A DNA stretch of 47,204 bases from NCBI GenBank assembly GCA_965178125.1, contig OZ237771.1, forward strand, positions 558,001 through 605,204, read 5' to 3'. The translations under genes and the position numbers were made by a program. This document shows positions 174 through 45,943 of this stretch, in pieces; the stretch's first letter is position 1, and the number at the start of each line of letters is the position of its first letter. The notes beneath the pieces are model-generated. The model had not been told where the DNA came from. It did no database searches and saw only the letters and a list, made by a program, of their open reading frames with translations. This DNA comes from Bilabrum cf. latius. Lineage: Eukaryota.

Positions 174-1277
174 ATGCGAAGCAGTGCTGCCAGTGCAGCA
201 TGCAGCAAATCTCTTGCTCGAGTTGCAGCAAAGAGAAGGGATGCGCGGCATAGAGGAGAACTCCTCGAAAAGCGGGTGGCGTTGCTCTTCACTCGCCTGG
301 GATACTGGAATGTTCGACGTAACGTTCGTGTGAAGGACAACTTTGGCAACTGGAGCGAAGTGGACGTAGTTGCTGGTGCGATTCCATGGCTGCGCGTGTA
401 CGTGGAATGCAAGGCTCATTCGCCGCATCGACCAATCCAGTTGTAGCAAGTTGCGAAGTTCAAAGAAGTGCTCCGGTTGCTGGGCATTCCGATTCGCAGG
501 GGACTTGTGGTCGGCACGGCCAGGTTTAGTCCTAGATGTTCATCTGTTGGATTGTAGCTATGGACAGAATCTGACCTGGAGAGCTGGGAGCACCGGGCAG
601 ACAGGCTGCAGAACATAGTTCGGGCGCCCAAATGGCTGCTCCTGCTGCTCGTCGTCCTCTGCACGATGGCCGAGTGGGCCGATGAAATTGGAGATGGATT
701 AGATCACGGAGTCGAGGTTCTTAGAGCAGCCGCCCCCGGACAGGACGTAGAGCGCTCCTGGTGGGAGACAGGGGCGCGGGCGGCTAGCGAGACGGTACGG
801 CGGGCGGGAGCGTGGAGCCGCTCTGCCGTGAGAAGGGGGCTGCGGGTGGGAGCTGAGGCCCTGCCTGGCGGGGAGAAGGCATTGGATCGGATCAGCAAGG
901 CGCTTGATGCGCTCAAAGAGGCCCTTGGGCTGCGTGTGGCGGGGGCTGGTGATGACGGGGGCAAGGGGGGCTCGCTGGGGGTTCTGGGTGAGGCTGTGGA
1001 GCGGGCGGATCTGGAGGCCCGACAGGGCCTGGCTGTGCTGCAGGCGGTGCTGGAGCAATTTACGCAATGGAGATAGGGTAATGGGGGCGACGGTGGTGGA
1101 TATGAGAGGGGCTATGATGGAGTTGATCGGGGGGATGTCCGGGAAGCTGCCGGTGGGCAGAAGACATCGCCAGGACCAGGACCAGGACCAGGGGAGGGGG
1201 CGGGAGGGCTTGACATGGACATGGGTAGAGCCGATGATTGCAACAGCGGGGCAGAGTGCGATAGGGGAAGATGTTAA
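174..1277 (+). CDS. Mrr-like PD-(D/E)xK endonuclease-fold protein with a hydrophobic helix (~367 aa, reading TAG as Gln)
   Basis: Track ORFs 174..446 and 666..1076 share a frame and join through TAG at 444, 556-region and 1074, ending TAA 1275-1277. Motifs GELLEKRVALLF..LGY, SEVDVVA, YVECK, VAKF, RGLVV..ARFS fit Mrr_cat; KWLLLLLVVL follows. Confidence 0.72.
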
Positions 1278-1512
1278 CATCAATCTGTCTGTTTTGTGCG
1301 ACCCATCTGAATTCAAGGCAGCTGCAACCCAAGCAAAGCATGCTTGCACGAAAGTTGGTCCATTCGTCACATGATGAGCACCCGTGATGACTTGGCCGAA
1401 AATCCAGAAACGCTGCTCCACGTCACACGTACACTTCAGCAGTATCGGACTCGTTTCTGTCGCATCTAGCATCGGCATTAAATTCGTATTGATTTTGTAT
1501 TGAATCCATCTA

Positions 1513-3159
1513 ATGGTGCTCCCAAACTGTGTCTCTCATGCGTGTGGGGCAGTATTTGCAGTGGCTGCCACCTGTGGACTGGTCTGGTTCGGACTCCACG
1601 CTTACTACTAGGACAGAATGAGTGAGCATAGCCACTCCATGCCAATATCTCTACCACTTTTATAATCTGGCTCCGGCCAATGGGGGGTTTTATGCCTTAT
1701 TGAAGCTTGCACTTACACCTGAATCCTAGTTTTTTTAACCGCAGCAACATGGCTCGGCTTTGCCGCAACATGTGCTCTTTTCGCAATGTGTACGACGTGG
1801 CTTATATTGGTTTGGTTTCAATAGGCTGAGTCTCGTGGTGTATCACCGTGCTGCTGCTCCACGGGCGAATCAAAGGCAAAAGTAGTCCCGCGTCAGCCAG
1901 TGTCAGCGCCCTCAGCAACTAGTGGCCGCGGTCGCATCGGGCTGGCAGGGCCCACGGATCAGATGCATAGCCCCCAGGAAGCTTCATCATCGTCGATTTC
2001 GACCATATCTAATCTCTCCACCGATTTGGCTGGCGAAATCGAGCTGTTGAATGGACGGCAGCAGCCAGTCCGAGTGCAATGGCAAGGTGCCAGCCCCGGG
2101 GCGGCGTTCGGCTGGGCTAATGCCAGCAACCTGCATGCGAGCAGATATAGAACTCGTACTGGTGAAAGTTACCCCGGCTAGTCCGTCCATGCACCTTCGA
2201 ACGGCAGTTTGAATGCTGTAGCAGCCTCCTCCGTTTCTGTGGCTGCCTCGGCTCCTCGACAGGCGCCTGCCAGTGGCGATGCAACCACGGTGAATGATAG
2301 ACGTACCGGGGGTGCGTATGCACCCGCTAGAGTGTCAGGCGGCGGTAGTCCCCAGCCCCAGCATCGCAAGGACCAGGACCAGGGCCGGCGCATTGCCCAA
2401 CCAGCGGACCCACGCTCACCCACTTCCTCCACCTAGACATCGCTATCATCAGCGGCTAGTGTCTGGGCGAACAGCATCGAAGAACAAGGTGACCCACGCA
2501 AGGATCGTGCGGCAGGCCGAAGCCCCTGCCCCCCTGTTCCGCTGCCAGCCCTCCCCTCGGTGGATGGCAGGTCCAAAAAGGAGCAGGACCAACGGGAGGG
2601 GGGAGCGACTGGCAGGAACTCCGTATCCGGCCGGGCCGGTGACGAGGTGCAGCGCACGAGCGTGCACCGCGTGCAAATCCAGGTGCGGCGCGCCGCTCGG
2701 GACCGGGACGGCCGGCGACTAGGGGTGCCCGCCCGGGTGCGAGCGGCCTTCGCGCGAAGGTTCGTCGACGAAGCGGCGGTGTGGGGGCAGGAGGTGCCCC
2801 GCGGAGGAGGGCAGATGGCGGGGTCCTCGCTGGAGGAGTGCGCCATATGTCTTGAAGGGTATGGCGCTGGTTGTTCGGCGTGCGAGCACAACCACGAGAG
2901 TCATGGGTGTAGCGCAGATGCAGCATCTGGCGGGGCGGCAGGTGAGAGCCGGAAGGGAGGATGCGAGGAGGGAAGGAGTCGGTTGGTGGTGCGACTTCCA
3001 CTCTGCGGACATGCCTTCCACCACGAGTGCCTGGACGGGTGGATGGCGAGGCACACAACATGCCCCCTTTGCAAGGCCGAGCACGGCGGGCTCAAGACCG
3101 CAGCTGACGTGCAAGCCCAGAGTGCTGTGGGCCACTGCGTGGTGGTTCGTAGGATGTAA
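1513..3159 (+). CDS. Membrane-anchored RING-H2 E3 ubiquitin ligase (2 N-terminal TM helices); intron 1622..1744
   Basis: CAIC...LPLCGHAFHHECLDGWMARHTTCPLC; ORFs at 1900, 2209 and 2560 share a frame and are linked by TAG (1609, 1822, 2179, 2434); GTGAG...CCGCAG intron restores the frame; ends TAA. Confidence 0.8.
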
Positions 3160-8399: not shown

Positions 8400-11300
8400 T
8401 CACAGTGCATCAAAATCGAGATCGTCAGCCATGGCAGGCTGGTCGGCTGGTGCTGCTGCTGCAGCTGCCGGTGCCGCTGATCCTCCATCATCACCCTGCA
8501 TCGCCCCTGCAGACTAATCCGGATCTCCATTCGGTCCATGAAGTGCCGGCGCATGTTCTTCGCTTTGCTTTCCTTCCTTTTCCTCTGTGTCCATCTGCAT
8601 CTGCATCTACATGCGAGCTCGCACCGACACCTTGCCCGCGTCCTTGTCCCGAAACACCCTGGGTCCTCTCCCCTCCCCCCTTGCATCACCAGCACCGCGC
8701 CCCCTGGCCCCCCATGATCCATCCTCCTGACCCCGCCCCGCCCACCGGATCGCATCCATCCCCTCCCGCACCACTCGGGGCACAGACATCCCGCACCCGC
8801 TCTGGATCCAACGCAACACGGACCGAAGCGCGCCTATCGAGGGAGAGCGCCCCGCCTCCACGGCCCCCAGAGCCACTGCGCCATGCTGACCACCCGAGGG
8901 CAGCACGCCGACCCTCTCCAGCACCGTCTGACAGGCCTCCTGTAGGGGCACCACGGGACCAGCCAGCGGCCGCGCCCGGAGTATCACGGTCTGGGCCGCC
9001 TGCACCCCTGCCCCTGCTCCTGCTTCTGCTCCTGCTGCTGCTCCTGTCTCTTCTCCGGCCGGAGCCACAGCCCCCTTCGGCCCCGTGGCACCCCTGCCTG
9101 GCCGCAGCACGAACTGCCCTGGCAGTCCCCGGGGGAGCAGCTGGTTGGCCGCCAGCTGCAGCAGCCCCCACGCCAGCCACGCCCGCCTCCCTGCCGCCCT
9201 GCCCGCCGCCCCCCTCCCTTCCTGCACCACCGCCTCCAGCTCGCCCTCGTGCTTGTGCGCGAGGTGACGGGCCACGAAGTGAGCGGCACGGAACCGCTTC
9301 CCGCATAGGGAACAGCGCACCGCAGACACGTCCCCGCCACCAGTCCCGCCCCCAGTACCTTTGCTCACGGTCTCCACCTGGTCCAGCATCCAGCGGCCCG
9401 CAAGAAACACTGGGGCTAGGTTGTGGGTGCACTGCACTGCAATGTCTGCCTCCTCTGCGGCCGCTGCCCCCAGCACCGCGGGGTCATGCCCGCCCAGCAC
9501 CAGGGCGGCCAGCGAGCCCCGGAGATGACGAGCCCCTGCTGGCACTCTGCCCAGCGGGATCTGCTTCGATACATGTGCAGCAGGCGCACTGCGAGGGTTC
9601 TCCAGGCCCCCATCCGAGCCGCCAGCAGCGAGCACAGCTGCAAGTGCCCTCGTCAACGGCCCGAGCCCCTCCTGGTCTGCATTTCCATCTATGACCCTCC
9701 TCTCACGCACCTCTCCCTCGGGTGCTTTGTCTTCATCGCGCGGACTGCCTGGTGCATCGGAGTCAGCTGGTGCGCTCTACTCCTACTTTGGCTCCTCGGA
9801 CAAGCCACTCGACTTTGCCTGTGCGGAAGGCTATTCCTATAGTGCACCACCCAATGCCCCTGCCGCCGCCCGACCCCCCATGCCGCACAGCGCACCAATA
9901 GGACCCATGCCCTCTATGCAGTGTCCTTCACTGTCCGCACCTTGCCGCCATGCACGCAGTCGCAATGCAGCCAGAAGCACGCCAGCCGCGCCTGCCGCAG
10001 TCTGAGAGAACAGCCGTCCAACCAGTGGGGCGCCCCCATCACCACCATCAGCGCCTGCAAGACCAGCCGCGCTAGCCCGTACCAGACCCGCCCCAGCCAC
10101 AGCACCTCTCACAGCCAGCACACCAGCTCCCCCCAGCGCGGCTTGCTGCAGTTGAATCGGCCTGCCTACTCCCCCATGACCAGGTGCCCTTCCCCTGCCC
10201 CTCCCCCTGCCCCGATGCATCGACCGCTTGAGCCGTGCAGCCAGTCGCCCCGCAGTGGTCCTCAGCGCCTCCTGCGCCTCGTCCTGCACCGCCCACAGGC
10301 CCAGTGGGGCACACAGGTGCGATAGAGATTCTGCCTCTGCCCCCCTCGCGCGGGACTCGGCAGAGTCGGGCACAGCCCCCGCCATGTCCCTGGGTCCCCC
10401 CGCCCACGCCCCTCCGAAGAGAGAGAGGCCGTGTGCCCGCTGGAGGTACTGCACGCATGCATCGGCCAGCATGCAGCCCCTGGGCTCGGCCTGCTGCTCC
10501 AGTCTACCATCACTTGACTCTCCCAGTCCCGCCCGCAAGCACTCGTCCACACCTTGCTCGAGGCCGGTCTCACGCAGCAGTGCATCCAGCGGACTAGGGG
10601 CAAGGGATGCAGCCAGCCACGGCGGAAGGGCCAGCCCAGCCGCGAAGGAAACAGCCCGAGGGGCAGCACCGCGATCCTCTCGCTCCGTGTCATCATGGTG
10701 ATTGCCTTCTGCCTTGCTCGACTCGACTTCCACCACCGCCGCGCTTGAGTCGGCATCGCCCGCTGCCTCGTCTTCGTCCTGATCCTCGTCATCCTCTACG
10801 GCCTTGCCGATGCCAGCACCGTCCTCGTAGTCCTCGTCCTCTTCCTCTGCTTCTTTCTCCTCGGCATAATCCGCCTCACCTGCCTCCACATTCGCCCCGC
10901 TGCTTCCTCCCACCATTCGATCCTTCCCATCCTACCCTGCATCATCCACTGCCCGCACACGAGCCCCCATTGCCCTCAAACAGTCATCCGAGGCCAGCTT
11001 CACCCGCATGGCCCCTGCAGACTCCCCGTCCCCGTCCCCAAGATCGTCGTTCAAAACAAGAAAGCCGTCGTATTGCATCGGACCCGCCACAGAGCTCCCG
11101 CTGCCACTCCCGGACTCAACGTACACACTCGTCACAGCGTGCAACAGCCGAGCCAGCACCAGCGCTGCCCTAAGCTACTGCGCCACTGCCTTGCTGGTGC
11201 TGCACCTGGGGCCCAGCACCAGCCCGCCATGGCCTGAATCTGCTTTCGCCGACTTCTTTGTCCCCTCTCTGTCGCCAGGACCCTGCGTCCATACAATAGC

Positions 11301-13622
11301 AGACACCCTGCATCCAGATGGGTGGTGCGTGTGCCCGATGGACCCCGCTCCAGAGGATGAGGGACTACCAAGCAGCACTGGGGCAGATGCACCGCTAGCA
11401 TCGTCACTCGCATACAAGTCCAGGGAAGGCCCGTCCATTGCGCGTCCTACTGCAGTCACCGCTGCAACGTCGATACCTGTACCTGCGCCTGCATCCCCAG
11501 TGCCCTGAGGAGCCGTCCTCAGTCGGGCCAGTCGAGCCGCCTACTTGGCAGAGGCACCCCCAGAGGCCTTGGAGGCAGCCCCCTCCCCCTGTGACTCCGG
11601 ATCCATGGTTGGATCCCCCGCGGCACCTCCAGTCTGCTGAGCGTCAGTCGCGCCATCGAGGCGCCGTGCATCTGCTGCCGCGGCTGACAGTGCATATGCT
11701 GCCCCCGCGCACTCGCCCCACCCCAGCACGGCACCATCGAGAGCCCCAACCAGCCTGCGTGCAACCGCTGGACCCGTGCACAGCACCCATCCACACCTGC
11801 TCCCGCCTTCGGTAGACGAAGCGCACAGCCGGGGCCAGAACCCGCCCTGGGAGCCCCCTCGCCCGTGGGGCCCCCGCCGAGGCCCGCTCACGTGCGCTGC
11901 TGCCAGTGCCCCGGCCCCAGGGGCGGGTTGGCCCGCCAGCACGTCATCCATCGCTGCTGTCACCACTTCGTCGCCGGTGGGGGCTCCTGCACTTCCGCCG
12001 GCCCCGGCTCCAGCTCCAGCCCCTGCTCCTGCACCTGTTGATGCATCAACAGACCCAGCGACTACACTCGCGCCTGCACCTGCGCCAGCTGTTGCTGCAG
12101 AGCCCAGCACCACGGTAGATACAAGTCGCTTGCGGGCCAGGGCCAGCAGTCCACTCGCGCTGCATGCGAGGGGCAGACCACGCACGCGCACCCACGCGCC
12201 CCAGGCCCTGTCCTCGCCCTCGCCATCGCCCTCGCCCTCGCCCTCGCCAGCACTGGGGCTTGCCAACACCTCCAGCACCATTGGGCCTTCCTGTGCCCGC
12301 CCCTAGGCCGCATCATCAGCCCACCCAGCGGCTCGCAACAGCGGCAGCAGGGGGGCCTTTGCTCTCCATCCCATAGAGGATGACGACTTGGAGGCAACGA
12401 CTGCTTGTTCTGACTCTTGGTCCGTGCCAGCAGAGCCAGGGCCATCGCCATTCACCCCATCAGCATGTTGCATCACCTTTCCCTGCCCTCCACGATCCTA
12501 CTTGCAGCCCTCCAATTGTTCCCTAGCCCAGCCCTCCACCGCATTGGCTCGCTCAGCCCATCCGCGCCACGCGCCAAGCATACCCGTCGGCGATACTGTG
12601 CTGCGGAACCAAGACTCGTGCTAGTGTGCGGCACCAAAAGCCACGATTTGCCCTGCCAGCCTCTCTAGGAACCTCTAGTCCACCTGCAGGTGCTCCACCC
12701 CGGCGCCCTGCTGATGGCTGTGGCCCCCAGTGGGTCCATTCTGCCCCTTCCCCGTTGCTCGAGCAGGGGGCTGCGGGGCGGCGCTGCCTGCATAGGCATA
12801 CAGAGGGGGCCACGCCTCTGGGAGAGAGACTGCTCTTCTCCTGTCCGACCCGCGGTCTTCTGGCGGCTGGGGTCCATGCCCATGCCCATGCCCATGCCCA
12901 CGTCCATGCCCATGTCCATGCCAAGCCCCTGGGGGCGCCTCCACCACCAGCCCGCCGGTGCGGTGAATCATCATCTGGGGAGGGGGGGGCAGTGGCATGT
13001 CCCTCCGGTCCCCAAGCAGCCGCAATGACCCGCCCCTTGCCAGGTGCACTCCATGGCTGCTACTGCTACTGCCACTGCCACTGAGCAATGCACCAGGCGG
13101 GGGTGGGCGGGGAGGAGCCATTTGCCCAGGAGGCAGGGCGCGCCCGAATTCATCCACGCTACTAGTGCTCACCGGACCCATCAAACCACCCCCTGCCGGT
13201 GGCTGAGGCTGTCCCAGTCGCTGCGGTACAGTACCGTGCGGGCCTGATGCTGGCCCGCCCCACGAGGCTCGTCCAGGCCCGTGGTCAGCAACCCTTCTAC
13301 CCATCGCCATTCCATCACGCAGAATGGCGCGATGATCGTTGGCAACAGCGGCGCCGTAATTGTGCGTGTTGAACTGCTGCTCGCCGAATCTACTTCTGCC
13401 TCCATTCCGTCCCTGCTCGTGCATTGATGCATGACCCCCACGTCTTCTTGGGGCATCGTCAATGTCATGAGATACACCAGGGCTACGACTCCTTGATCTA
13501 CTCCTTGATCTGCTCCTTGAGCGGCCCCTCTGACGATCATTTCGGCCACGATGCCGATCGCCGAACAGGTCCTCCCCTCCTTCGACATCCTGCACATGAT
13601 CAATTGCGTCGTTTTCCTGCAT
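8400..13622 (-). CDS. SRRT: SERRATE/Ars2-like RNA-processing factor (~1740 aa with low-complexity expansions)
   Basis: Six track ORFs (12675, 11541, 11175, 10932, 9837, 8607) share a frame and join via about 13 TAGs into one ORF ending TGA. RS-rich N-terminus, H*HESWFR (cf. Ars2 HxxEEWF), YLQRAHG, and C2H2 finger RCSLCGKRFRAAHFVARHLAHKH. Confidence 0.72.
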
Positions 13623-13955
13623 TCTCGATGTAAACCCGCCCTTAAACTACAATAAATTAAAGGACGGTTGCAAGAACACGATTAGTCCACGATTTAAACC
13701 GCTAGGTGTTCGCGTTCATCGGCTTTGGGGCCCAATGTAATGTGCACGGTATAACATCCTCCAATATCGTATTTTTGGTCAACGGCAACTTGGGGATAAA
13801 GTAGCCAGCATGAAGGGGAATGGCTGTTTCTCAAGAAGAAATTTTGAATTTCAGTGCCAATAAGGATTTATCCTACAGTACTGGGAACCTCTCTCTGAAT
13901 TGAAGACAACTGCTTGAGAGCATAGGAACTGTCTGCGTAGCTGTAGTTGGAGTGA

Positions 13956-16097
13956 ATGCTAACTGGGCATCCAGAAGATCTTGGAAGCGTCCCAGAGCCC
14001 GAGACACCAAGACCAAGGGCTCCCATATCTAAATACCAAGGGCTCGACGCTTGCAAGCGATGCGCGAGGTTGGAAAGGCGCCTGAATCGTGCAAAGTAGA
14101 TGTTAGCGGCCCGTGATACTATCATTGAAGACACCCACGCGGAGATACGCCGAATTAAAGAGTCCAACAGTTAGACATAGGGTGTGATTGCAGCGGCTCA
14201 GGCTTACACGAGCAAGATTCAGAGGGACGCTGCCTCCTCCGGTAGAGCCCCTTCGGCCGCGCAGATGCGAGGTCTGCTGGCCCATGTTCGCGCCCTCGCC
14301 GAGGAGGCGGGCAAGCAGCACACCCTGCGCATAGTTGCAGAGCGACGGGCCCACCGTGAGGGCATGCGGGCGGCTCGTGCAGAGCGAGTGGTGCAGGAGG
14401 AGCGCGGGGGGCTGCGAGAGGCGAGGCAGGCGCTGGCCAGGCAGGAGGGGAGGACAGCCGAGGCCAAGAGTCGCATGGAGCGGGCGGTGAGGAGAGCCCA
14501 CGGGCTCGCGTGCGTGGTGGCATCGCAGGAGACCGTGATCGCTGGCCTGCAGCGCCTCTCGCGGCGAGACAGGGCCCAGCCTGCCGGGCATAGGCCTAGA
14601 ACCGCCCAGGATTCGGAGCATAGAGACCGTATGCCGCCTGCTAGCCGCCGCTCCACCCAGCCTTAGTTGGCTCTTACCTCCGTATTGTCTAAAATCACGC
14701 CGCTGCAGTACAGCCAACAGGGACCTTTGGCCTCGTGGGTGCACTCGGTGGAGCCCGCAGCGCAAGGTGCATCAATGTAGCAGTACAGCCAACAGGGACC
14801 TTTGGCCTCGTGGGTGCACTCGGTGGAGCCCGCAGCGCAAGGTGCATCAATGTAGCAGTACAGCCAACAGGGACCTTTGGCCTCGTGGGTGCACTCGGTG
14901 GAGCCCGCAGCGCAAGGTGCATCAATGTAGCAGTACAGCCAACAGGGACCTTTGGCCTCGTGGGTGCACTCGGTGGAGCCCGCAGCGCAAGGTGCACTGG
15001 ATGGTGCAGCTGTCCACAATCAGTCTAACGGGAAACAGGCAGCCCGCCCCCAATGGTCAGCACAGTTAAGACTGTGTGTCTCGACCAGGGAAGCTCGCCG
15101 CCGGCTGTGCAGCGAATGGCGAGGCAATCTTGGAGCATAGAGCCGGATAGCTCAAGCCGGTAGATCCTACACAGCTGCATCTTCGAAGGAGGCAACCTCA
15201 CCCCAATCATAGGAAGCATAGGCTGCTATGGATGATACCAAGTCTGATGGATCCATGGTACCGTTTCCTCGCCTAGATTGGTAGTGTCAGCTAGAGGTGT
15301 CCGCAGCGACTTTGGGCCAGTCAAGCCATCGAGCACCGAAGCCTCAACCGCTAGTTCATGCCGGCGTGCTGGCACTGCATTGCGTTGACCCAGTTTCTCG
15401 CGATGGTGCTGTGGGAGATGACTCACGGGTTGCTGCTGGCTCTGAGCTCGAGCAAAGCGCGGAGCAGCAGAAGGAGGACCAGAAGCATGCCGATGCTTTG
15501 GAAGCATAGCAAGCTGACTTGGACGCAGAGGCCCAGCAGCAGCAAGAGCAAGAGCAAGAGCAAGAGTACCTGAAGAGCGCGCTATTCTCCAGCTAGGCCC
15601 GTGTCGATTCCCTCGAGGCCCAGATGCAGAAGGACGCACAAGAATTCGCTGCCCGGCTGTCTGCTCTGGAGCTGGAGCTGTTGGAGTTGAGGCACGGTAA
15701 GGAGGAAGAAAAGGACGAGGACGATGACGAGGAAGATGATGAGTCAGATGAAGAGAATAGACGGGATGATGACGGCGAGGACAACCAATAGTCAGGCAGA
15801 AATGATGGTTATGGGGGCGGTAGGGTGACTAGTGGGACCGACGGGGAGGGGCAGGGGGAAGGCCGTGGCAAGGACCAGGATGGCGATGCCGATGGCACCG
15901 ACGGGGAGGGGCAGGGGGAAGGCCGTGGCAAGGACCAGGATGGCGATGCCGATGGGACCGACGCGGAGGGGCAGGGGGAAGGCCGTGGCAAGGACCAGGA
16001 TGGCGATGCCGATGGGACCGACGGGGAGGGGCAGGGGGAAGGCCGTGGCAAGAACCCGGATGGCGGTAGCGCGAAAATTACGCATGGAAGTGCTTGA
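13956..16097 (+). CDS. Hypothetical coiled-coil/acidic protein (~713 aa) with internal 25-aa and 20-aa repeats
   Basis: One frame, open from ATG 13956 to TGA 16095 if 14 TAGs are read through (14097, 14172, 14178, 14664, 14778, 14853, 14928, 15138, 15210, 15219, 15282, 15507, 15594, 15789). The true start is uncertain. Confidence 0.68.
14705..14996 (+). repeat. 75-bp tandem repeat, ~4 identical copies (coding QYSQQGPLASWVHSVEPAAQGASM*)
   Basis: Unit gcagtacagccaacagggacctttggcctcgtgggtgcactcggtggagcccgcagcgcaaggtgcatcaatgta repeated directly. Confidence 0.95.
15834..16066 (+). repeat. 60-bp tandem repeat, ~3.8 copies (coding GTDGEGQGEGRGKDQDGDAD)
   Basis: 60-nt periodicity visible line to line from 15841 to 16060. 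Confidence 0.95.
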
Positions 16098-16343: not shown

Positions 16344-19300
16344 TTACCAGGACGGCCCCGCGGACCGCCAGCTGCCTGAACCAAGACCAGCAGCACTCGG
16401 CGGCACGCCGCCAACGCTGCTACCCTTGCCATCCCCGCCTCCGCGCCTGTTCTCCTCTCCCATGATATCTACCAGCCCACCACTTCGCTGGCTATTGCCA
16501 TCACTGCCCGTGCCGCTTTCTCCTGCCCCAAATAGCCTCATGCCGCCCGATCCAGAACCGACAAACCCACCTCCTGCCCCGAACAGCCTGCTCCTCGGAG
16601 GCGGCCCCAGGTCTCCCCCGTCCCTCTCCCCCGTCAGTAGCGCGCTCAGAGCCACACCCCAATCAGTATTGCCTCCGCCACAGCACAGAGCAGCACGCCC
16701 CACCCCATGCGCCGCCTCCACCACGGGCCCCGCCTGCTAACCAGCGGCCCGCCCCATGGCCACTGGGAGCACAGCAGCCCCCGCCGCTCGCTGGGCCAAA
16801 TGCCACACGGGGCACGGAGCCCCAGCGGCGCTCTCTTCCCCCCCGCCACTTACATTCACACGCCCCGTGCACCTTCCGCCTTGCCCTGCGCTGTTCCCGT
16901 CCCCCACAGCCGCGAAAGCACCCAATAGCGAGCCACGAGACCGGGGTGGCATTGGCAGGCCCCCCTCCCCTGCCCCCGCCCCTGTCCTTGCCGATGCCCT
17001 TGTCTCCTCCCCACTGCCCTCCCTGGGCGGCAGGCAGCACCATATCCACGTCGCCTGGCAAAGCATCGCGGCGGAGGGCCGTTCCAGCCGCATGCTGCCT
17101 AGCCCCGGCCTAGTCCCCTCCCCCTCCCCCTCCCCGCCTCTTCCATGCGCCCTGGAAGCGAGCCGGGCCGATGCCACCCCGGCAATGCCACCCACCACGG
17201 CAGCAGAGATCATGCCAGCCGCGCCTGCCACCCGCTCCACCCCAGCCACGGGCCCGCCGCCCGTCCCCTCGGAAGCACGCACGCGACCCTGCGCCTCACC
17301 CATGTGACGCAGCGCGCCTGCCGCCTTGTGTAGGGCCTGCGCGCCGACCTGCTCCCCTCCCAGCACAAGCACAGACACCAGGCCGCACACCGCTGGGAGC
17401 AGCAGACACACTCGCCCGCCTCCCTCCGCCAGCCCAGCACGGGCACAGGCCCAGGGACTTTCCCGCTCCCCCGCCCCTACTGACCGCCGCATAGCTGCCC
17501 CGAGGGACGCCGACCCACCCGCCACTGGACTGGCCTCGCCAAGCGCGGCCGCCGCCCGCACCATTTCGATACACTGAGCCCAGGCGGCCCCCTCTCGTGG
17601 TAGCACTGCTGCATCCAGGGGCAACACGAGCGCGGCTGGACACGCGATGCACACGGCGTTCAACAGCCGACACGTGGCAGTGACAAGCTCGTGCCGGCAC
17701 AGCGCAGCTTCCCCACGCAGGCCCCTCTCGCCCGCCTGCATCGCGCCAGGCACGTCGGATGTCTCGCCGCGAGCCGCGCGTGCCACCGCCCGCAGCACCC
17801 CAGTCCCGTGCTCTGCCCACCGCAGCAGGAGCGGCACCAGCACCCGGTCCAGCGCCCCCGCGACCTGCCTCACGGGCATGGCCCCCTCCTGCCCCTTGTT
17901 CCCTGCAGCCCCCTCCACCACGCCCTCGAGCGCCCCGATGGCCTCCCGCAAGAGAGTGGAGGAGTGGCGAGAGGCGAACGAGGTGGCAGGGGGGGGACCT
18001 CCGGCACCAGACCCGCGGGCCCTCCCCCCCACAGGGACTCCCAGCGAGTCCTCCGCCGCTGAGACCAGCGCCCTGAGCACTGGCTCCAGCATGGGCCCGA
18101 TGGACCCGCGGGCCGACATGACGCCAAGTCGAGCCAGCTGTAGGGCCGCGGCTCGCACGCTGCCCACGGGATCAGGAGCTGCAGCACCCTCGGCCCCTGC
18201 GTCCCTGCCCCAGCTGCCGGCTGCCCCCGCGCACGTGGGCCAGACCGCCTGCAGTAGCACACCCGCGAGCGGATCCATGCCGAACGCAGACGGCAGGCTC
18301 TCCTTGGCGCCCGTCTCCAGCCCGCCCAGCACTGCCAGCCTGCGCCAGGCCCCGTCCTCTGCTCTGTGGCACGGTGCCTTGACCCCTGCAAGGCACGCCG
18401 CTAGCACGATCAAGCCAGCCTCCACCCGGGCTCGGGCCCAGGGGCACGGCTGCAGAGTCCGCGCCCCTCCGCCCGCGGATCCGGGGCTAGAGGCCTCCCT
18501 TGTGGCGCGTGCGATGAGTCGCAGCACGGGTTTGACCACCGCCTGCAGTCTACCAGTCAGCTTGACCCTCGCAGCTGGCCTGCCCCCGTCCTCGAGGCAA
18601 TGTGCAAGAGAGGCTGCGGCGCATGCAGCAGATGCCACGCGCGCCACCGAGTCGGCCTACAGACAGAGCAGCATCTCTCCTGCGCACAGATGAGCCTGCC
18701 CCAGGCCCTCCAGCCTCACTGTGGCACGCACTGACTCCAGAGAGACACCCGTGGAGGCTGGTTTGCCCGCCTCCTCGCCCCGGTCGCACAGCAGGAGCGC
18801 CAACAGGCCCGCCAGCCGCTCGGCAAGTCGTCCGCACGCAGCCCCGACCGCCCTCACCCCGGTGGCAGAGGGACCTGCCCCTCGCCCTCGCAGTCGCCCC
18901 ATCGCGCCTCTCGCCAGGCTCACGGCAATGCCCTCCATGCATGTCTGCAGCGCCCCCGCAGCCTGCTCCAGGTGCCGCACGGGGGCCCGCTGCACCCCTC
19001 CCCACGCCGACGAGGTGCACGCCCTGTTCACCAGTGCCCATGGGTTCAGCTGGCGGTAGCCCTTGCACCACTGCGAGCCCGTCACGTCCCTCCCCAGCAT
19101 CCCGGGGACCGTCCTGGTCCTCGCCGAGCCACCGCGCCCTCCCGCCAGCATGCCCACGTCCACAAAGCCCGAGGCCTCCTCCCGCGCCGCGGCTCCCCTG
19201 CGTCCCAGCAGCCCGCACATGCCGCTCATGGCCAGCACGGAGAGGGCAGAGGCGGCCGAGGGGCTCCCGCTGCACCCAGGGAGCTGGCCAAGCACCTGTC

Positions 19301-26132: not shown

Positions 26133-26256
26133 TGCAAGTACTGCTTTGTTTGCAGTCGGGCATTGTGAGGCTCCGAATCCTTTTCAAAAATAGGCCTAGA
26201 TGTTTTCCGCCAGTGGTAGTGCTATGCAGGTAACCAGCTCAAAAGAAGCACTTGCA

Positions 26257-27641
26257 TCAACGCTTGACCCACTGGAACTTCTTCCTGGCCTTCTTGCGGC
26301 CTGGCTTCTTCCTCTCCACCATGCGCGGGTCCCTCCGCAGCATCCCCAGCCGCTTGAGCTGCGGCTGCAACCCGGGATCGAACCTCGCTAGCGCCCTCGC
26401 CAGCCCGTGCTTCACAGCTCCTGCCTATCCGCTGGGTCCGCCCCCCTTCACGTCCACACGCACGTCAAAGGCCCCCGCGATGCCCAGGGTCAGCAGGGGA
26501 GAGAGCGCCTCCCGCCGGTCCTCCATCAGAGGGAACACCTCGTCCAGCCGCTTCCGGTTCACTGACACGGAACCGTCGCCCAGCCGAACCAGTACGTTCG
26601 CCTGGGCCGTCTTGCGCGCCCCCCTAGCCCCCGCCCACCCTCTGCTGGAGCGGCGCGGAGCCCGGATGAGCGTCTGCTCCATGCGCACCTGCTTGCGGGA
26701 GGCCCCCCCTCCCGCGGCGCCCCCGTCCGTCTCCTCGCCCTCGGAGCGAGCCATCTCGAATAGCATCCAGAAAGGCATCGCGCGTGGGGTGCGCACCGAT
26801 GGGTCCCAGTCCAGGCTGCTCACGTACCCCGTGCCAGTGAGCATGCGCTGCAGGTAGGGGTCGTTAAGCACCTTCTCGCGCTCCTCGGGCCGAAGGGTGT
26901 CGAGGCCAGCCGACAGGCGACGGCCCACTTCCTCCGGGCGAGTGCCTTCCACTGCAGAGCCGGGGCCTGCACCGCCCCCGTACGCTGCTGTTCGCACCGC
27001 CGCGTCTTCCTCCAGCTGGCCCCCCGCCACTGCTGATCCGTCAGCGCCCGCCGCGACAAAGTCGACCTCGTCCTTGCTCAGCTGAAAGGCCGCCGATTTG
27101 CCGCGAGAACCAGACTGGGCCTCAGCCCTGAGACGCTCTTGCTCAGCGCGAGCATGCGATCGTGCAAGCCTATCCGAAGCCAATTCGTAGTCCGTAGGAG
27201 AGGCAACATGCCGAATGTTGCCCAACTCGTCTTCTACCTGCGGTGGTACAGTGGAGTCCAAGAGCGTAAGTCATCATTCAACATGCTACGATACGATCAA
27301 TCGGCTCATGAAGTGGTACACCGTGCCACACTCGGGCTCACCTCAACTTCCTCGAGCAGCTGCCAAGAATCCTTCCCATTTTCGCCAGGAATTCGCTTCA
27401 TGACTCCATGCACGTGCCTTGGTGGCTTGCTTAGCTCTTCAGCCCGAGTTTGCTGGCTAGATTCCTTCCCAGCGTCTCGCTGAGGGTCCCACTCCCAATC
27501 ATCACGAAGGCCGCTCTGCCATCTCCGAGCTGCAACACACCTTCCGCTCAACTAGCCAGCAGATGGAACCAATCCGTGAGAAACATTACTAACAACTTTT
27601 GAAAGCGCCCTAAGTCGACCGACAGCCTACGCCACCCGCAT
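26257..27641 (-). CDS. MRPS9: Mitochondrial ribosomal protein S9 (uS9m); intron 27238..27341
   Basis: [56 protein letters not shown]. Arg-rich, acid-free presequence [16 protein letters not shown]...; TAG at 27627, 27552 and 26425. Confidence 0.93.
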
Positions 27642-27807: not shown

Positions 27808-29793
27808 TCACTCATCGTCATCCGAACCGCTGTCCCCTCCGGCTCCCCCGTCCTCGTCTTCGTCCTCGTCATCATCACTGGAGCTCTCGTTGCCCCCGCC
27901 CTCCTCGAAATCAGAATCCTCTTCGTCCTCGTCCTGCATGGCCGCCGCCCCACCCGTCGCCGGTCCATCGTCATCATCGGCTCCCACTGCCACCTGGTAC
28001 CTCTGGCCCTTGGTGCCCTGCTGCTCGTCCGTGGTTACCGACAGCTTCTTGCCGCGCAGGAAGCGGACCAGACCCGCGTGCTCCCGGCGCTCGATGGACG
28101 TGAATGTGTACTCGCGCCCCTGCTCCCCGCCGGCCCCCCTGCACCGAATGACCATGTCGAACGTTCTCGAGGCCACCCCTGCGGCCCCCATGCCCATGCG
28201 CTGCATCTCGATGCCCAGGATCTCCGAGTGACGAATGGACGTGGCCGGCTTGTGGATGAAGAAGAAGGACCGGTCCAGGGGGAACAACAGTCCGTCGTTG
28301 CCCTTGAGCGCGCTCCGGAATGCCTTGTGCCCCGTGCGACTCACGAACTCGCCCGTCTTGAAGATGCGCTTGCCCGTGATGTTCCTCAGCAGCGAGGCCA
28401 CCACCTTGGGCAGCTCGCCCTCCACCTTGGCCGGGATGTTGCCGTACTTGCTCTTGCGCGCATCGGCGCTCGCCAGCACGTCAATGGCGGCGTGCACCAC
28501 GTCCAGCTGCATGACCAGGTGGGGGTACCTCTGCTGGCCCTGCCGGATGGGGTCGTCGAGAGAGATGACCACGTTCACACGGGTGCTGTCTGCCGTGGTC
28601 TGAGAGGGGCGCGGCAAGTAGTACATGCGGCTGATGCTCTTGTAGGCCAGTCGGTACTCGTAGGTCTTCCCGACCATGCGCATGGCCGTGGGATACATCT
28701 CGATCTTGTACCTTCCCCTCGGGGTCAGGAAGAGCGCCTGCGACTCGGGGATCTCCGCCACCAGGTCACCGGAGGACTCCGCCCCGCCCAGGTCTGCCAC
28801 TTTGGCCATGGCTGCCTGCAGCGCCTCCCCCGCGGTCTTGCCCTCGCCCAATTCCTTGGCTTGTTCCTTGAGCTCGGGATGCTCGGGGGGCACCCACAGC
28901 TTCATTTCCATGAGCACCTCGTCCTCGGGGCCTGCGGTATCATCGGCCTCATACTGAAGAGACACCTCCCCGCGACCGGGATAAGCCAGGTGGGCCAGTC
29001 CGTCCAGCGGCAAAAAACACATGGGCCGGCCCTTGGGGTCGTGCAGCTCCAGGCGCTTGCCAACCACTGTGGGCTCACCCCAGTTGCCCCCGCCGACCGC
29101 CATAGTCCCGTCTGTCAGAGCAACCCTCCCTTCCAGAGCTGTGTCGAGCGCCTCGGACAGGCGCTGCCTGGACCTAGGGTCGAATCCATCCAGCACCAGA
29201 AGCTTGTCGCTGGCCCCGCGGATTCGAAGCTGGGCGCGAGCCGGACCCTGCGGGATCCACTCGAGGGACTTGATATCACCTGACTTGACCTGTGAGTGCA
29301 AGATGATTTAGACTATTCGTGGAATGTGCGTGATTGAATTTGGAGGCGCGGATAGCGAGCGGGACACTAGGAGGAACGCCGCGTGCTCGATCGGCGACCG
29401 GCGAATTGCTGCCGCAATTCCACTCACTTTCTCGATTCTGCCATCATCATTTCGCCACGTAATTCCCTTGTCGGCTATATCGACGGTTCCAAGGTTCTGC
29501 GTGCACCGCAGGTGAGAAAGGGTTCGCTATCAGCACGTGGCAGACGAAAGGATACGCAGGAACACGCACGGCATATACCTGGACAAACACTTCAAACGAA
29601 GAGTAGACAAAAAGTGTTTATAGGTGTTGACAAGACGAATGTCCCCTTGTCTCACTGTGGTGGCTCCGCACAAGAGGATATTTCGGAAAGCAACAATCAC
29701 GTTCGACTTCGCAGACGATGCAGCTGAAGACGAGGATGAACTAGATTCCATGGGAGCCTGTTCGCTCTTTGATTCTACTGCCGAAGCCGCCAT
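27808..29793 (-). CDS. SSRP1: FACT complex subunit SSRP1/POB3 (no HMG box); introns 29290..29427 and 29497..29655
   Basis: GGNWG, FLTPRGRY, LDDPIRQGQQRYPHLV, GLLFPLDRSFFFIHKP, SRTFD and an acidic tail; 69-nt middle exon NLGTVDIADKGITWRNDDGRIEK; ends TGA. Confidence 0.95.
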
Positions 29794-29957
29794 CCAATTT
29801 ATTGCAAGCTGAAGGTGCTCTTGACTTTGCTCTTTTTGTTTCAAAAGTTGCCTGCTGCGAGTGTGTGATGAGTGAGTCTCAGAGGCACATAAACTGCCAG
29901 ATACCACAATAATAAGTCAGCTAAAACAATATTTTCTCAAGAGTTTGTTGAATTGCA

Positions 29958-32819
29958 ATGGCGGCTGCTCCCCGAGTTGCTGAGAAAGGGAGTAAACGTT
30001 TCAACTAGTTGCGCGAGCGAGGAAATGATTCGCAGGCCATCCTTCAAGCAAATGGCGTTAGAGTGTGGGTCAACAAGCAAGTTATTGGATTGAATAGTGA
30101 GCATGCAGCTATAGAGCTGGCCGTGTTGACACAGTCCGCCATTCTGCTGTAGTCATCACCCGGCTAGTCGAAGGTGGATCCATTGCTGCGACTGAGTACC
30201 TTTGATATCGTGGGTGCTCGAGTTGCATCGGCAGGACCCATCCGCCCTACAGACCCAGATCCACCTGTGCCTGGGGCAGACGATAGGCTTGTGAACGTGG
30301 TGGCTTGGCCCCGACCGGCGGAACCGGAGGGTTTCGCGTCTGGCTCGCACGACGCCCAGGGCGGGTGCTGCTCCTCCTGCGGGGCATCCTCCACTGCCAT
30401 TGACCTAAGGCCGCATGGATCGCTGCAAGCGGCTGCCGCTGAAGCCCGCGCAGCCGGCCTGTCCGTATCCGAGTCGGCGCTGCGGAAGGCCGCGGGAGCA
30501 ACCGGGCGCGGGGCTGCGCTCCGAGGGGATGGGGGGGCGGGCCCAGGCACGGCTGGGGCGGCTCCCTCTACGCATGCATCGGATATGCACGCAGCACACG
30601 CTGCCCCGGTCGCGCCTGTCCCTGGCAGTGCACTGCACTTCGAGCACGTCAGCCATGTTCGTGATGCTGGTGCGAAGCTTCCTTGGTGTGATGAGTGTGG
30701 TGGCACCTCAGGCGAGGTGCGGCAGCTCGAGCCCGATATTTCGGACGCACCGGAAGAGGGGGGCAGTCCGGTCACGGGCAGTGATGGTGATGGTGATGGT
30801 GATGGTGATGGTGATGGTGGTGGCGAGGCAGGGGCAGGGGCAGGAGCAGGGGCAGGGGCCAAAGGAGGTTCGATCCTTCGGCAGGCCTCGAGACACCAGG
30901 CCCGATGGAGGAACGAGCCGAGGGCAGCGCCCTTCCGGCCTGCGCAGGTGAGGGGGAGGGACCCCCCTGGGCGGCAGAGGGTGCTCCTGACGATGCTGCT
31001 GCCTTCCGCGCGGGAGGCCACCGACTGGGCGAGGGCGCTGCAGCGACTGGGCCGCGGGCTGCCCGTGGTGCGGCACTCAGGAGGCGAAGAGGGTGGAGAA
31101 GGGAGCGATGTCCCGCCGGGGGCCGTGCTGCCCGCCCCCCGGCGCCGCCTTCTGGTGATTGCATCGGACGCAAGTGGAATGGGTACGGCCAAGGATCTTC
31201 TCGGCGACCACTGGCGGCCCTTGCTGGAGCAGGACGGGGGCTGCGAGGTGGAGGAGATGTGGACTAGCGCGCCGGGGGATGCGCAGGGCATGATGCAGCG
31301 GCTGGACGTGAGCCGGGTGGATGCTGCGGTGGCCTGCGGGGGCGATGGTATCCTGCACGAGATGGTGCAGGGGCTGCTAGGCAGGGAGGACTGGGCCAGG
31401 GCACGGCTGCTGCCGCTGGGGCACCTCCCTGCGGGCAGCGGCAACGGGATGAGCAGGAGTGCCGCCTCTGCAGCCAGGGAGCCCTGGGACCGCGTGAGTC
31501 CTGCCTTCTTGCTGTGCAAGGGGGGTGTCTCGCCGCTGGATGTGGCCGCCACAGATGTGTGGCCCGAGGGGGAGAAGGCCCCCAGGCGGGTGTACTCCAT
31601 CCACCAGATCGAGTGGGCGGTGGCGGCGGACATCGACAGGGAGAGTGAGGCTTACCGGTGCCTGGGCCCCGACCGGTTTGCTGTGGCTGGCCTCGTGCGG
31701 GCGTTCTGCGTGCGGTGGTACGGGGGCAGGCTGTTCCTGCTGCGGGCAGGGCACAAGGGGGTGGGGCCTGTGGGCGCTGGGGGTGCCTCGTATGAGCCAG
31801 GCCATGGCTTAGACCGCCCCGGTGAGCACAAGGAGGGGGAGAGCGCGGCAGCTGCACCGAGTAACAGTGGCGGGATCACGGTATCTATGGGGGCGGGAGA
31901 CCCCCAGGAGGCCTTGCTGGGCACGGGCACTTCATCTGCCTCTGCAGCAGGAAACAAGCAGGCCACGGTTTCCTCTTCCAATTCCAGTGGACTGGTAGAC
32001 CCCTCTGTCTTCCGGAAGGCCTCTAGCCCAGCCTTTGACTGGAGGGACGACTCCACCCGGTCCCACGAGCAAGCCTCTTCGGCGGCTCACACGGTGGTAC
32101 TGGCCTCTCCTGATCTTCCCGCTGATGCCATCCACGGGGAGAGCGAGCCGGCCGCAGCAACGAGCGGGGCAGCGGCTCCGCGGGACGAGTAGGAGGCTCA
32201 GCCACAAGACGGCAAGCAGGAGCAGGCCACTCGTCACACCCTCAGGAACGTGCACCTGCCTCCCTTGACCTCTACGATCGGTGGAGTGGGGGGCCCAGGA
32301 GCACCCCTTACTCAAGCCACTGGATCCACTCCAGACGTACCCAGGGGGGCGGGGCCAGGAGCCCCGAGCGAGGACTTGGGGGGCCGGCGGCGCACCGGTG
32401 GGTTGGGTGCCGGGGGCCGGTGGGAGGTGGTGGAGGGCACCTTCTCGTACTTTTGGGCCTGCAGCTCCACGCACCAGAGCTACGACGTGAGCGCTGCCCC
32501 GCACTCTCGGTTCGACGATGGGGCGGCGTGGGTGACGCACGCGGGCCCGGCTCGGTGCTGCGGGATGGTGCAGCTGCTGCTGGGGCTGGACGAGGACGGG
32601 GGGCTGACGAGGCTGCCCTGGGTGGATGAAGACCCCGTGGTGGCGTGGAGGCTCGAGCCGGGGCCCAAAGCGGTGGCAGGCACGCAGGTGATGGTGGATG
32701 GGGAGGCGGTCGGGCATGGCCCGGTGCAGAGCGAGATCCACAGGGGCCTCCTGAGGCTCATCACCGGGGTCCCGATGGGAGATGCGCTGCCTGCAGAGGA
32801 TAGAGCCGGTCTTGTCTAA
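29958..32819 (+). CDS. Sphingosine kinase / DAGK-catalytic family lipid kinase (~953 aa)
   Basis: CGGDGILHEMVQGL, LPAGSGNGM, ADIDRESEAYRCLG..RF and C-terminal VMVDGE. Halves join via TAG 32190, with three more TAGs upstream of 30174; ends TAA. Confidence 0.9.
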
Positions 32820-44092: not shown

Positions 44093-44401
44093 TGCAAAAA
44101 TTTCTTTGATGTCAGTGGGGTCACTTGATAATGTCACGTTCAAAATATGGGAATCACGTCTTTGTGATGATAGTCGTTTGATAGTCAGTAGTTCTGTTGA
44201 GATGATGTTTATGGCAGTGGTTTATTTTTGGAGGATTGTATTAATACCAGATATTCGTTGGCTTATAGTCAAGACTAAACAGAATGCCTCTTGGCTCCTA
44301 CTATTCCGTCCTAACGGGTCACTGGCTGGCACATTGGCAAACTCCTCTCACAAGCTGGCCCAGCTGCCACTGACCTCAATTGCCATCCGATTGGCTGCTT
44401 T

Positions 44402-45943
44402 TCACTCGTCATCGGAGGAGGGTTCCGCACCGACAGCTGCCAGGAGCGCCTCCACAGCGTCCACGTCTGCCGCATTGAGATCTCCTTCCGCCGTCTTCTC
44501 GAGGGCCGTCATCAGGTCTGCGAGCATGCCCAATCCGTGGTCCCTCTCTTGAATTGTTTCCTGCACGTCCTCGACCATGTCGTCGATAGTCCGGCTGACG
44601 CCCAGCGCGGTGTCATCGCAGGCAGTGAGGATGCGGTCCACCAGGTGCCGCTGCTAGTCGGTGAAGCCGTTGTCCTCCACTCCACCGTCGTTCTCAGAGT
44701 CGTCTTGCTGGTTCTGGGCCTCGTTCTCTTCTTCCTCATCCAGCTCGTTCCCATCCTCCTCGTCCTGCTGCACGAGCCCTATCGGAGCCTCATCCTCGTC
44801 CTCCTCTCCGGCTGCGTCTGCGTGGTACCGACCACGGATCTCCTCTTCATCTTCCTCAGAGTCCTGTCGAGGCAGTGATGCTGCTGCTCCACTCCTTGCG
44901 CCACTTGCTCCCCTCTTCTCCTGGTCATCGGCGCGGCGAGCTCCTCCGCCATAGCCCGGCTGGAGGACGGGCAATCGCTTGGGCTGCATCTTAGCCGGAG
45001 GCGCGGCTTCAGCGTGCCTGCCCTTCGGCTCTGCCGATCGGGCACCCTTGCCCTTCGACTTGCCCTTAGACTTGCCCTTAGACTTGCCCTTAGACTTGCC
45101 CGCGGCCTTGGTCCTGGCGCTGAGCTTGGCCTTTGCCTTAGCCTTTCTCTCGGCCTCCGCCGCTCGCTTGGGGCCGAGTAGCTCGTTGTTCAGTCGCTCG
45201 GTCGCTGAGTCGCTGGACTCTGAGTCGTCCCGACCCATCCCGCCCTGCTCCCTCCGGGCCGTATAGGCTCTGTGCTCCACGTCATCTTCGTCGTCGTCGT
45301 CGTCGTCGTCGTCCATGGCACTCCGCTTGCCCTTCCGCGTACGGGGTGCACTACTCGGCACGGCAGCAGCGGCTCCCGAAGAATCACCTTGATCTCGTGC
45401 TGAAGCCTCGGCAGAGTCGTCAACCGGCAACTCGAGCATGTCCTTGAAGACAGCCTGCATGCCTCCACGACCACGCACAGAGGCTTTCCCAGCTCCGTGG
45501 TCGCAGACGAACTTGAGCACGGTCTTGTAGTTCCTCCGCAGGCCGTCCATGCCTGCCTTGAACCAAGGATTGTGGTTGGTTGAATAGCCGCTGTCGCGCA
45601 GGCCCATGAGCAGCTGCTTCATCTTCCGAAAGCCTGGCGAGCTGGAGCCGCTGGTTGATGCAGCCGGGTACAGGCGACGGTTCAGCGACTCGAGCACGCC
45701 AGACGGCAGCTTGGACTCATCCAGCGCCAGGATGGCATCCACACAGGCCTTGATGCCCGCCTTCTTGGTCCCTTCGTAGTGCTCCGTAGACCCGCAGAGC
45801 AGCCCACAGTCTTGGTGGAGGCCCACGAGGGAGATCAGCAGGACCTGCTTGGCCGCGGACGTGGCGACGCCTGAAGCCAGGGCGGCCACGACAGGGCGAG
45901 ACTTGCTGGTGTGCTTGACGCTGTAGCTCTTTGCGGCGGCCAT
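44402..45943 (-). CDS. Element-encoded hypothetical protein (513 aa; folded-looking N-terminus, basic KGKS repeats, acidic tracts, helical C-terminus)
   Basis: ATG 45943 (MAAAKSY), preceded by ccgcag; track ORFs ending 44654 and 44402 share a frame and join via TAG 44654; ends TGA. Confidence 0.75.

Follow-up and report, generated by a model that had tools for sequence, protein, structure and literature searches.

Genes of the window and their in-frame TAG codons

We have analysed a stretch of 47,204 bases of contig OZ237771.1 (hereafter the window), with a G+C content of 50-73%, which is nuclear DNA of a GC-rich protist carrying eukaryotic nuclear genes. Our subject is the genetic code of these genes, 13 of which contain TAG in frame. 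The reading that we prefer, at a probability of roughly 0.88, is that cytoplasmic translation takes UAG as glutamine (Gln, Q) and keeps UAA and UGA as the sole terminators, as in NCBI table 15. The evidence comprised the window itself, contigs of public sequencing runs and retrieved relatives. Gene models were built from six RNA-supported introns and otherwise continuous frames, and gave the following 14 genes.

168..1277, + strand: Mrr_cat (restriction-endonuclease-like) gene, Pfam PF04471 (E 9e-6), 367 codons from the first ATG; in-frame TAG x3 (first bases 444, 555, 1074); stop TAA
1723..3159, + strand: RING-finger protein gene, Pfam zf-RING_2 (E 2.8e-9); in-frame TAG x3 (1822, 2179, 2434); stop TAA
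3926..8305, + strand: protein kinase gene, Pfam Pkinase (E 1.5e-43, in two stretches); in-frame TAG x6 (4298, 4379, 6128, 6737, 6854, 7031); stop TGA
8400..13715, - strand: gene for a large protein of low complexity, weakly matching an ARS2-type zinc finger; 14 TAG in the open frame, 13 of them after the first ATG; stop TGA
13956..16097, + strand: coiled-coil/repeat protein gene, 713 codons, no Pfam family; 14 in-frame TAG; stop TGA
16344..22960, - strand: gene for a large Ala/Leu-rich protein, 2145 codons in 2 exons, intron 22561-22739, no Pfam family; 6 TAG codons (16737-16739, 18657-18659, 19329-19331, 19476-19478, 21720-21722, 22904-22906); stop TAA
23140..23655, + strand: small membrane-protein gene, 139 codons, intron 23419-23514 (GT..AG), no Pfam hit; one in-frame TAG in exon 2 (23524-23526); stop TAA
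23773..24652, - strand: short-chain dehydrogenase (SDR) gene, Pfam adh_short, 254 codons, intron 24242-24353; one in-frame TAG (codon 23986-23988); stop TGA
24822..26183, - strand: DnaJ-domain membrane protein gene, Pfam DnaJ (E 5e-21), 436 codons; 4 TAG codons (25221-25223, 25470-25472, 25617-25619, 25791-25793); stop TGA
26257..27641, - strand: uS9m (mitochondrial ribosomal protein) gene, Pfam Ribosomal_S9 (E 2.7e-41), 426 codons, intron 27236-27339; 3 TAG codons (26425-26427, 27552-27554, 27627-27629); stop TGA
27808..29800 (upper coordinate approximate), - strand: SSRP1/Pob3 (FACT subunit) gene, Pfam PH1_SSRP1-like, Rttp106-like_middle and SSrecog, 562 codons in 3 exons, introns 29288-29425 and 29497-29655 placed by contig joints; the sole gene of the 14 without TAG; stop TGA
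29952..32819, + strand: lipid kinase gene of the DAGK_cat/sphingosine-kinase type (SphK), Pfam DAGK_cat (E 3e-18), 953 codons; in-frame TAG x4 (30006, 30150, 30165, 32190); stop TAA
32852..35239, + strand: orphan protein gene, 772 codons, no Pfam family; in-frame TAG x5 (32963, 34565, 34604, 34622, 34886); stop TAA
44402..46291, - strand: acidic/lysine-rich protein gene, 513 codons from the first ATG, no Pfam family; one in-frame TAG (codon 44654-44656) and one TAG upstream of the ATG; stop TGA

The 14 models, whose frames were chosen as free of TAA and TGA, contained 64 in-frame TAG in 10,920 codons and no internal TAA or TGA. An initial annotation of this DNA had described 13 of 14 genes as broken by in-frame TAG only, in about 65 cases, with no exon needing read-through of TAA or TGA, and both counts agree closely with ours. 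The terminal stops were TGA in eight genes, TAA in six and TAG in none. The TGA ends previously given to uS9, SDR and SSRP1 were recovered in the gene models, as were the TAA ends of the genes named TMEM218, sphingosine kinase and RING. Pfam bore out the names uS9, SDR, SSRP1 and RING and the DAGK/sphingosine-kinase type, and gave no hit in support of the identity TMEM218.

We have then compared the three phases of 13 stop-to-stop frames. TAG occurred 63 times in frame against 71 and 80 times out of frame; the corresponding numbers were 0 against 152 and 191 for TGA, and 0 against 27 and 31 for TAA. One of these 13, a 306-codon frame at 23016-23936 (- strand), was dropped, being antisense to the RNA-supported membrane-protein gene. 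Codon counts over 12 frames gave 378 CAG, 109 CAA and 61 TAG, which puts the share of TAG among presumed Gln codons at about 11% and its overall frequency at 5.8 per 1000 codons. With TAG as sense, the three longest frames of the window grew from 747, 674 and 639 codons to 2113, 1771 and 1459. Frame length under alternative codes was rejected as a stand-alone test and is not decisive alone, because in GC-rich DNA many frames also grow when TGA is taken as sense (the longest to 1319 codons).

Translation of TAG and the amino acid inserted

Coding signal continued across the TAG codons. The leave-one-gene-out codon log-odds was 0.177 in the 40 codons before the 59 testable TAGs and 0.185 after them, and the frame of the gene scored best of the three at 47 of the 59 sites. 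After 12 terminal TGA or TAA codons, the value was 0.012.

Contigs of four public runs from three studies (X1, X5, X6 and X7) were aligned to positions 16200-35300. Six joints with GT..AG or CT..AC ends were present in X5, X6 and X7 (two studies), skipping 179, 96, 112, 104, 138 and 159 nucleotides (nt), in agreement with the intron length of about 100-180 bp that had been annotated (96-179 nt in our hands). They comprised joint 22560/22740 of the Ala/Leu-rich gene (X5, X6), 23418/23515 of the small membrane-protein gene (X5, X6, X7), 24241/24354 of the SDR gene (X5, X6) and 27235/27340 of uS9m (X5, X6, X7), together with those of SSRP1. None of the six spliced joints was found in run X1, whose depth was fairly even; depth in X5-X7 varied by gene. 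The listed X5-X7 contigs covered 16 of the 24 TAG codons in this region, and one unbroken X5 contig spanned the orphan gene (32425-35300). The TAGs lying on spliced contigs included 23524-23526, 23986-23988, 26425-26427, 27552-27554 and 27627-27629. No differing letter was found in the contigs of any run over 16200-35300, and none of the six canonical-ended joints removed a TAG codon. TAG is thus neither spliced out nor edited in these assemblies. Its retention in RNA, on which the initial annotation's proposal depended, held on contigs with spliced joints whose RNA label is a guess.

Selection on the sequence beyond the TAGs was estimated against a relative recovered from metagenomes as two loci, L001 and L002, which are 99.8% identical to each other and represent one species. 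Its SSRP1 is 79% identical to that of the window, and the gene order SphK-SSRP1-uS9m-DnaJ is the same. Downstream of the last TAG, the ratio of nonsynonymous to synonymous substitution rates (dN/dS) was 0.024 for SphK (81 codons), 0.060 for SSRP1 (229 codons) and 0.053 for uS9m (55 codons); it was 0.36 for the poorly conserved DnaJ tail. Synonymous sites were saturated between the two species (dS >2 or undefined). The low ratios supported that the sequence downstream of TAG is kept as protein. The claim that UAG is translated was upheld by all three lines of evidence, and TAG is a sense codon within conserved, expressed and selected coding sequence.

Four frames of L001/L002, of 981, 521, 340 and 299 codons, were open only with TAG as sense and held 11, 2, 3 and 9 TAG, respectively, at other sites than those of the window in the same genes. 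Under the standard code, the relative's frames reached at most 299 codons, against 981 with TAG as sense.

Conserved columns identified the residue. In all three PDB alignments listed, the uS9m TAG at 26425-26427 falls on the Q of the motif GGGxxGQ, and its column held Q in 119 of 120 homologues, the remaining one having K. The SDR TAG aligned to the Q of LRAVAQSMAREL in PDB 3h7a, its sole PDB match. In the DnaJ gene, the TAG at 25791-25793 follows the "YD" of the J domain and aligned to the Q of "YDQ" in E. coli DnaJ; among the five PDB alignments listed, the residue was Q in four (all E. coli DnaJ) and T in the fifth (DNAJB9). Of 88 homologues, 72 and 77 carry Q in the columns of the two TAGs in the relative's SSRP1, where the window uses CAG in each case.

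A substitution-profile analysis gave Q a log-odds of +14.9 bits and negative values for all other residues (best S at -4.1, E at -10.8; Leu below the eight best residues listed, the eighth being at -29.4). Four orthologous pairs allowed 27 TAG sites to be aligned between the two species, and the partner had Q at eight of them, including all three sites with a flank identity of at least 0.9. The low overall number is accounted for by most sites being variable; even for genuine Q codons, the partner kept Q in only 45% of aligned pairs. The assignment of UAG to Gln was supported, Q being dominant at conserved columns and alone in having a positive log-odds. Translation under NCBI table 15 reproduced uS9m with Q282.

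Termination and alternative readings

The preferred reading requires that UAA and UGA have remained terminators. Every TAA-ended frame of the window met a further TAA or TGA within 10-20 codons. The TGA of uS9m stood exactly at the C-terminus of the family (...WVKR) in both the window and L002, and the TAA of the window's SphK had as its counterpart a TGA in the relative's orthologue, whose C-terminal tail is five residues shorter. With six TAA and eight TGA ends, neither triplet in frame and the ends of SphK and uS9m matching the relative's, the proposal that both stay stops was sustained.

The alternative that fares best, improbable as we consider it, is an ambiguous code in which UAG is sense or stop by context, in the manner of Condylostoma and Blastocrithidia, where UAR (UAA and UAG) and UGA are sense or stop by context. 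With 14 gene ends seen, a minority of UAG termination would be possible. Yet no gene ended in TAG among the 14 of the window and the three complete genes of L002, which favours full over ambiguous reassignment, within a small sample. Nor did the base 3' of the in-frame TAGs (G 23, C 15, A 12, T 11) reveal any strong context, and TAA and TGA serve as dedicated stops.

We regard as still less probable that UAG has kept its meaning and is read through at a high level, with the eukaryotic release factor eRF1 still recognising it and a near-cognate ordinary tRNA-Gln suppressing it. Read-through by near-cognate tRNA-Gln does exist in standard-code organisms, according to PMC13192750. Against this stand genes with up to 14 TAG, from which partial read-through would leave almost no full-length product, the density of TAG over the coding sequence and its occurrence in essential genes (uS9m, and SSRP1 in the relative). 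Moreover, the trait is found in both of two species with saturated synonymous sites.

Slighter again are the chances of a code of the NCBI table 6 type, in which TAA would also be Gln, rare in GC-rich DNA, and TGA would be the sole stop. TAA is indeed the rarest stop triplet in the window, and UAA and UAG usually change together, as stated in PMC5304391. However, had TAA the same meaning as TAG, the CAA:CAG ratio of 109:378 and the 61 TAG would predict about 18 sense TAA, and the 10,920 codons contained none. Reading TAA as sense left the top frames unchanged in the window and in L002. The coding score was near zero after the six terminal TAA, which soon meet a further stop, and that of SphK lies within five residues of the relative's TGA.

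Two other explanations are scarcely credible. That the TAGs are untranslated (spliced or edited out, within pseudogenes, or assembly errors in a subtelomere-like region) could draw on the telomere-type arrays and satellites of the window and on the guessed RNA status of the runs, but four runs from three studies had no other letter at any covered site, spliced contigs kept TAG and no joint removed it, dN/dS was 0.02-0.09 downstream in three of four genes (0.36 in DnaJ), and a second species has TAGs at different sites of the same genes. That UAG encodes another amino acid, e.g., Leu, Ser, Glu or Tyr as in other variant codes, could appeal to the inter-species sites that face residues other than Q, but Q alone scored positive, predominated at the conserved sites of uS9m and SSRP1, and is itself kept in fewer than half of the aligned pairs when encoded by genuine Q codons.

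Several points weigh against assigning UAG to Gln in full, with UAA and UGA as the only stops. The sample is small, comprising 14 genes of the window and one 9-kb contig of the relative, and the zero in-frame counts of TAA and TGA are partly built in by the choice of frames. The RNA status of X5-X7 is a guess, X5 being marked "probably DNA," and the runs were judged by their spliced joints; contigs, in contrast to raw reads, are blind to rare variants and to transcript ends. Most TAGs lie in poorly conserved, low-complexity regions, and 19 of the 27 aligned inter-species sites faced residues other than Q (A 4, G 4, S 3, E 2, R 2, and P, T, H and D 1 each). At a flank identity of at least 0.5, Q was found at just five of 10 sites, and two well-flanked sites of the relative faced Ala. 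A uS9m protein of another strain (P0098, Logan-derived, 99% identical, A186K) has Q at the window's TAG and so speaks for Gln, but this Q may reflect calling under a TAG=Q model rather than a CAG or CAA codon. Finally, ARAGORN found no tRNA genes in the window or in the related loci L001-L005 and L013; we thus infer the decoding mechanism from other UAG-only codes.

Origin, known codes and further features of the locus

The extent of the trait was judged from more distant relatives. L003, with an SSRP1 41% identical to the window's, had frames of 960, 823, 669 and 496 codons without TAG. In L004 (SSRP1 39% identical), a 1418-codon frame ended in TAG, and read-through added only seven codons. 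Sense TAG is common to the window and the syntenic second species and not to these more distant relatives.

In the SSRP1 tree, the window paired with P0002, a third species with 77% identity, in a six-row clade. This clade was nested in one of 19 rows (Shimodaira-Hasegawa approximate likelihood ratio test, SH-aLRT, 99) with oomycetes, diatoms, Pinguiococcus and P0009, which is named in its source as the labyrinthulomycete Mucochytrium quahogii; the rows of this tree included no named alveolate, rhizarian or haptophyte. The top named matches of uS9m were oomycetes and labyrinthulomycetes, and its tree put the window in a 16-row clade without named proteins and with a poorly supported base. A protein-atlas search with SSRP1 returned large fungal and plant FACT clusters only, which did not aid placement. 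The organism appears stramenopile-like, judging from single-gene trees that set it among or near stramenopiles, and is unplaced. An aphelid origin was rejected, given that in Amoeboaphelidium TAA as well as TAG is Gln according to published work, and that the SSRP1 tree splits the window from fungi on a branch with an SH-aLRT of 99%.

In the sources cited here, the only UAG-only Gln codes listed are those of Iotanema spirale (PMC5304391) and, among ciliates, those of Protocruzia tuzeti and of H. sinica and T. petrani, which represent two phyllopharyngean lineages (PMC11687900). The initial annotation had named Iotanema and some ciliates, correctly, from a list that is somewhat longer (PMC11687900). 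Iotanema (Metamonada, Fornicata) shares the code table with the window, and its code was established by the same reasoning, from in-frame UAG at Gln positions with UAA as terminator. The mechanism predicted for it is also the same, namely a tRNA-Gln(CUA) unable to read UAA together with a changed eRF1. It differs in belonging to an unrelated supergroup, in evidence drawn from a transcriptome only, and in having UAA as the main stop and an eRF1 T32G change in the GTS motif, whereas the window belongs to a GC-rich genome and ends its genes with eight TGA and six TAA. In the UAG-only ciliates, UAG is Gln and UAA still a stop, as in the window, and 78-84% of genes have internal UAG, compared with 13 of 14 here (PMC11687900). 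Ciliate macronuclear genomes are built differently and belong to another lineage; the SSRP1 of the window falls with stramenopiles and not alveolates, in a tree with no named alveolate.

UAR is read as Gln in many ciliates, Hexamita, Streblomastix, Ulvophyceae and the aphelid Amoeboaphelidium protococcarum (PMC11687900, PMC5304391, PMC6299283). These codes involve the same change of UAG from stop to Gln, probably from the same one-step tRNA-Gln origin, but UAA is also Gln there, whereas it behaves as a stop in the window. TAG-recoded phages (crAss-like) formally use the same table 15 (PMC9523058); their genes are translated inside bacteria, by means of RF1/RF2 and a suppressor tRNA of the phage, unlike the eukaryotic nuclear genes of the window, with their introns and telomere-type repeats. 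UAG is likewise uncoupled from UAA, with another amino acid, in the rhizarian exLh and three ciliate metagenome-assembled genomes (Leu) and in Scotinosphaera (Ser) (PMC5304391, PMC11687900); both residues were negative in the window test.

By analogy with the other UAG-only codes (PMC5304391, PMC11687900), UAG would have a tRNA-Gln of its own, whose anticodon CUA differs by a single base from that of tRNA-Gln(CUG). Such an anticodon would pair with UAG and not with UAA, so UAA could stay a stop. Recognition of UAG by eRF1 would have been lost or weakened, again on the model of these codes, where such changes concern the GTS, NIKS and YxCxxxF motifs of its N domain (PMC5304391), and TAG would then have spread mainly by C-to-T change of CAG codons.

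The code type is already known, and the lineage is probably new for it. Full-text searches of the literature found neither a stramenopile nor a similar GC-rich lineage with such a code, within the limit that papers outside the collection searched, and supplementary files, may list further UAG-only taxa. We give even odds to a further independent origin of the UAG-only change from stop to Gln, in a GC-rich lineage of at least two species bracketed by TAG-stop relatives; the saturation of synonymous sites between two of its species would make the change an old one. The independent and undescribed origin put forward in the initial annotation meets with no contradiction here: the nearest non-recoded relatives have TAG-free frames, one of them ending in TAG, the lineage falls with stramenopiles in the SSRP1 tree, and these searches found no literature report. 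The DNA and RNA-like runs date from 2025, so that others may already be studying the case or have described it.

Nuclear code changes are rare, and those that split UAG from UAA are rarer still. Every further independent origin is a test of the view that a suppressor tRNA bearing the anticodon CUA lets UAG escape alone, and of which eRF1 changes accompany this escape. Codon-capture arguments usually invoke an AT pressure that makes a stop codon rare; a GC-rich case in which both TGA and TAA are kept as stops is informative in this respect. Should the origin be independent, the organism would lend itself to work on how UAG is told apart from UAA by eRF1 and tRNA-Gln(CUA), as a tractable system that is neither a ciliate nor an anaerobic metamonad; the existence of DNA and RNA-like runs indicates that it is cultured or easily sampled. 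There are also practical consequences. Standard-code gene callers would cut or split nearly all genes (the standard-code frame of uS9m stops at TAG in the window), and because 13 of 14 genes are truncated in this way, annotation, metagenomic binning and phylogenomics of the group need table 15. The case is a good lead of publishable grade and not a new kind of system.

Some further observations concern the relatives. The G+C of L002 between 1384 and 9126 was 0.54, against about 0.6-0.7 in the window, and TAG use was higher in L002, with 25 TAG in the 2,141 codons of four frames, nine of them in the 299-codon DnaJ gene. The strain represented by the Logan-derived proteins P0098 and P0001, about 99% identical at the protein level, had an SSRP1 that differed at 4-5 residues. 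Both calls start at GTG or TTG translated as M, pointing to a gene caller of the prokaryote type.

Others concern single genes of the window. The domain of the protein kinase is split by a long low-complexity insert, with both halves in the same frame and four of its six TAGs between them. The ARS2-like gene matched Pfam ARS2 with 22.4 bits, under the curated cut-off of 30, and a homologue search with the C-terminal 522 residues of its protein gave no match, low-complexity words having crowded the candidate list. The coiled-coil gene contains a perfect 75-nt tandem coding repeat at 14705-14996 (3.9 copies, 100% matches), within which TAGs with first bases 14778, 14853 and 14928 are spaced 75 nt apart; this spacing suggests that a TAG-bearing unit was amplified recently.

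Within the Ala/Leu-rich gene, contig depth over 20659-21295 was ~100-fold or more higher in all four runs (18,488 against ~130 in X1). Many loose ends and false joints fell at 20674-20711. A short GCT/CAG-rich low-complexity stretch of this region is common to many other loci. For the orphan protein, an exhaustive search of 1.84 billion representatives with 795 residues gave three weak short matches, uninformative on the TAG sites. Behind position 34221 in its gene, both X1 (a DNA-type run) and X5 have 18 extra bases (six codons, in frame) that are absent from the window assembly, which points to an allele or else to a short repeat that collapsed.

The small membrane-protein gene (+) and the SDR gene (-) are convergent, with stop codons 117 nt apart. 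Single X5 and X6 contigs cover both genes with one intron of each orientation, which indicates that their 3' ends probably overlap or abut. The Mrr_cat and SDR genes look bacterial in type, and PDB 3h7a, the "short chain dehydrogenase" matched by the latter, we take to be a bacterial entry. Both genes contain TAG, and the SDR gene has a spliceosomal intron; if transfer brought them in, their adaptation to the code of the host is by now complete.

No Rfam families, including rRNA, were found in the window. A subtelomere-like block occupies 35582-44098, inside the contig and flanked by genes, and consists of the following repeats.

35582-36110: 53-nt repeat x10
36247-37389: (TTAGGG)n, ~190 units
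37450-39415: 155-nt satellite x12.7
39450-41923: 22-nt repeat x112
42355-43170: (TTAGGG)n, ~136 units
43232-44098: same 155-nt satellite, x5.6

The genome had been described as one with TTAGGG telomeres; the arrays are present, but they lie inside the window (36247-37389 and 42355-43170). They share one orientation. Interstitial telomeric sequence, the healed or fused end of a chromosome, and a join made in assembly are all conceivable origins of the block.

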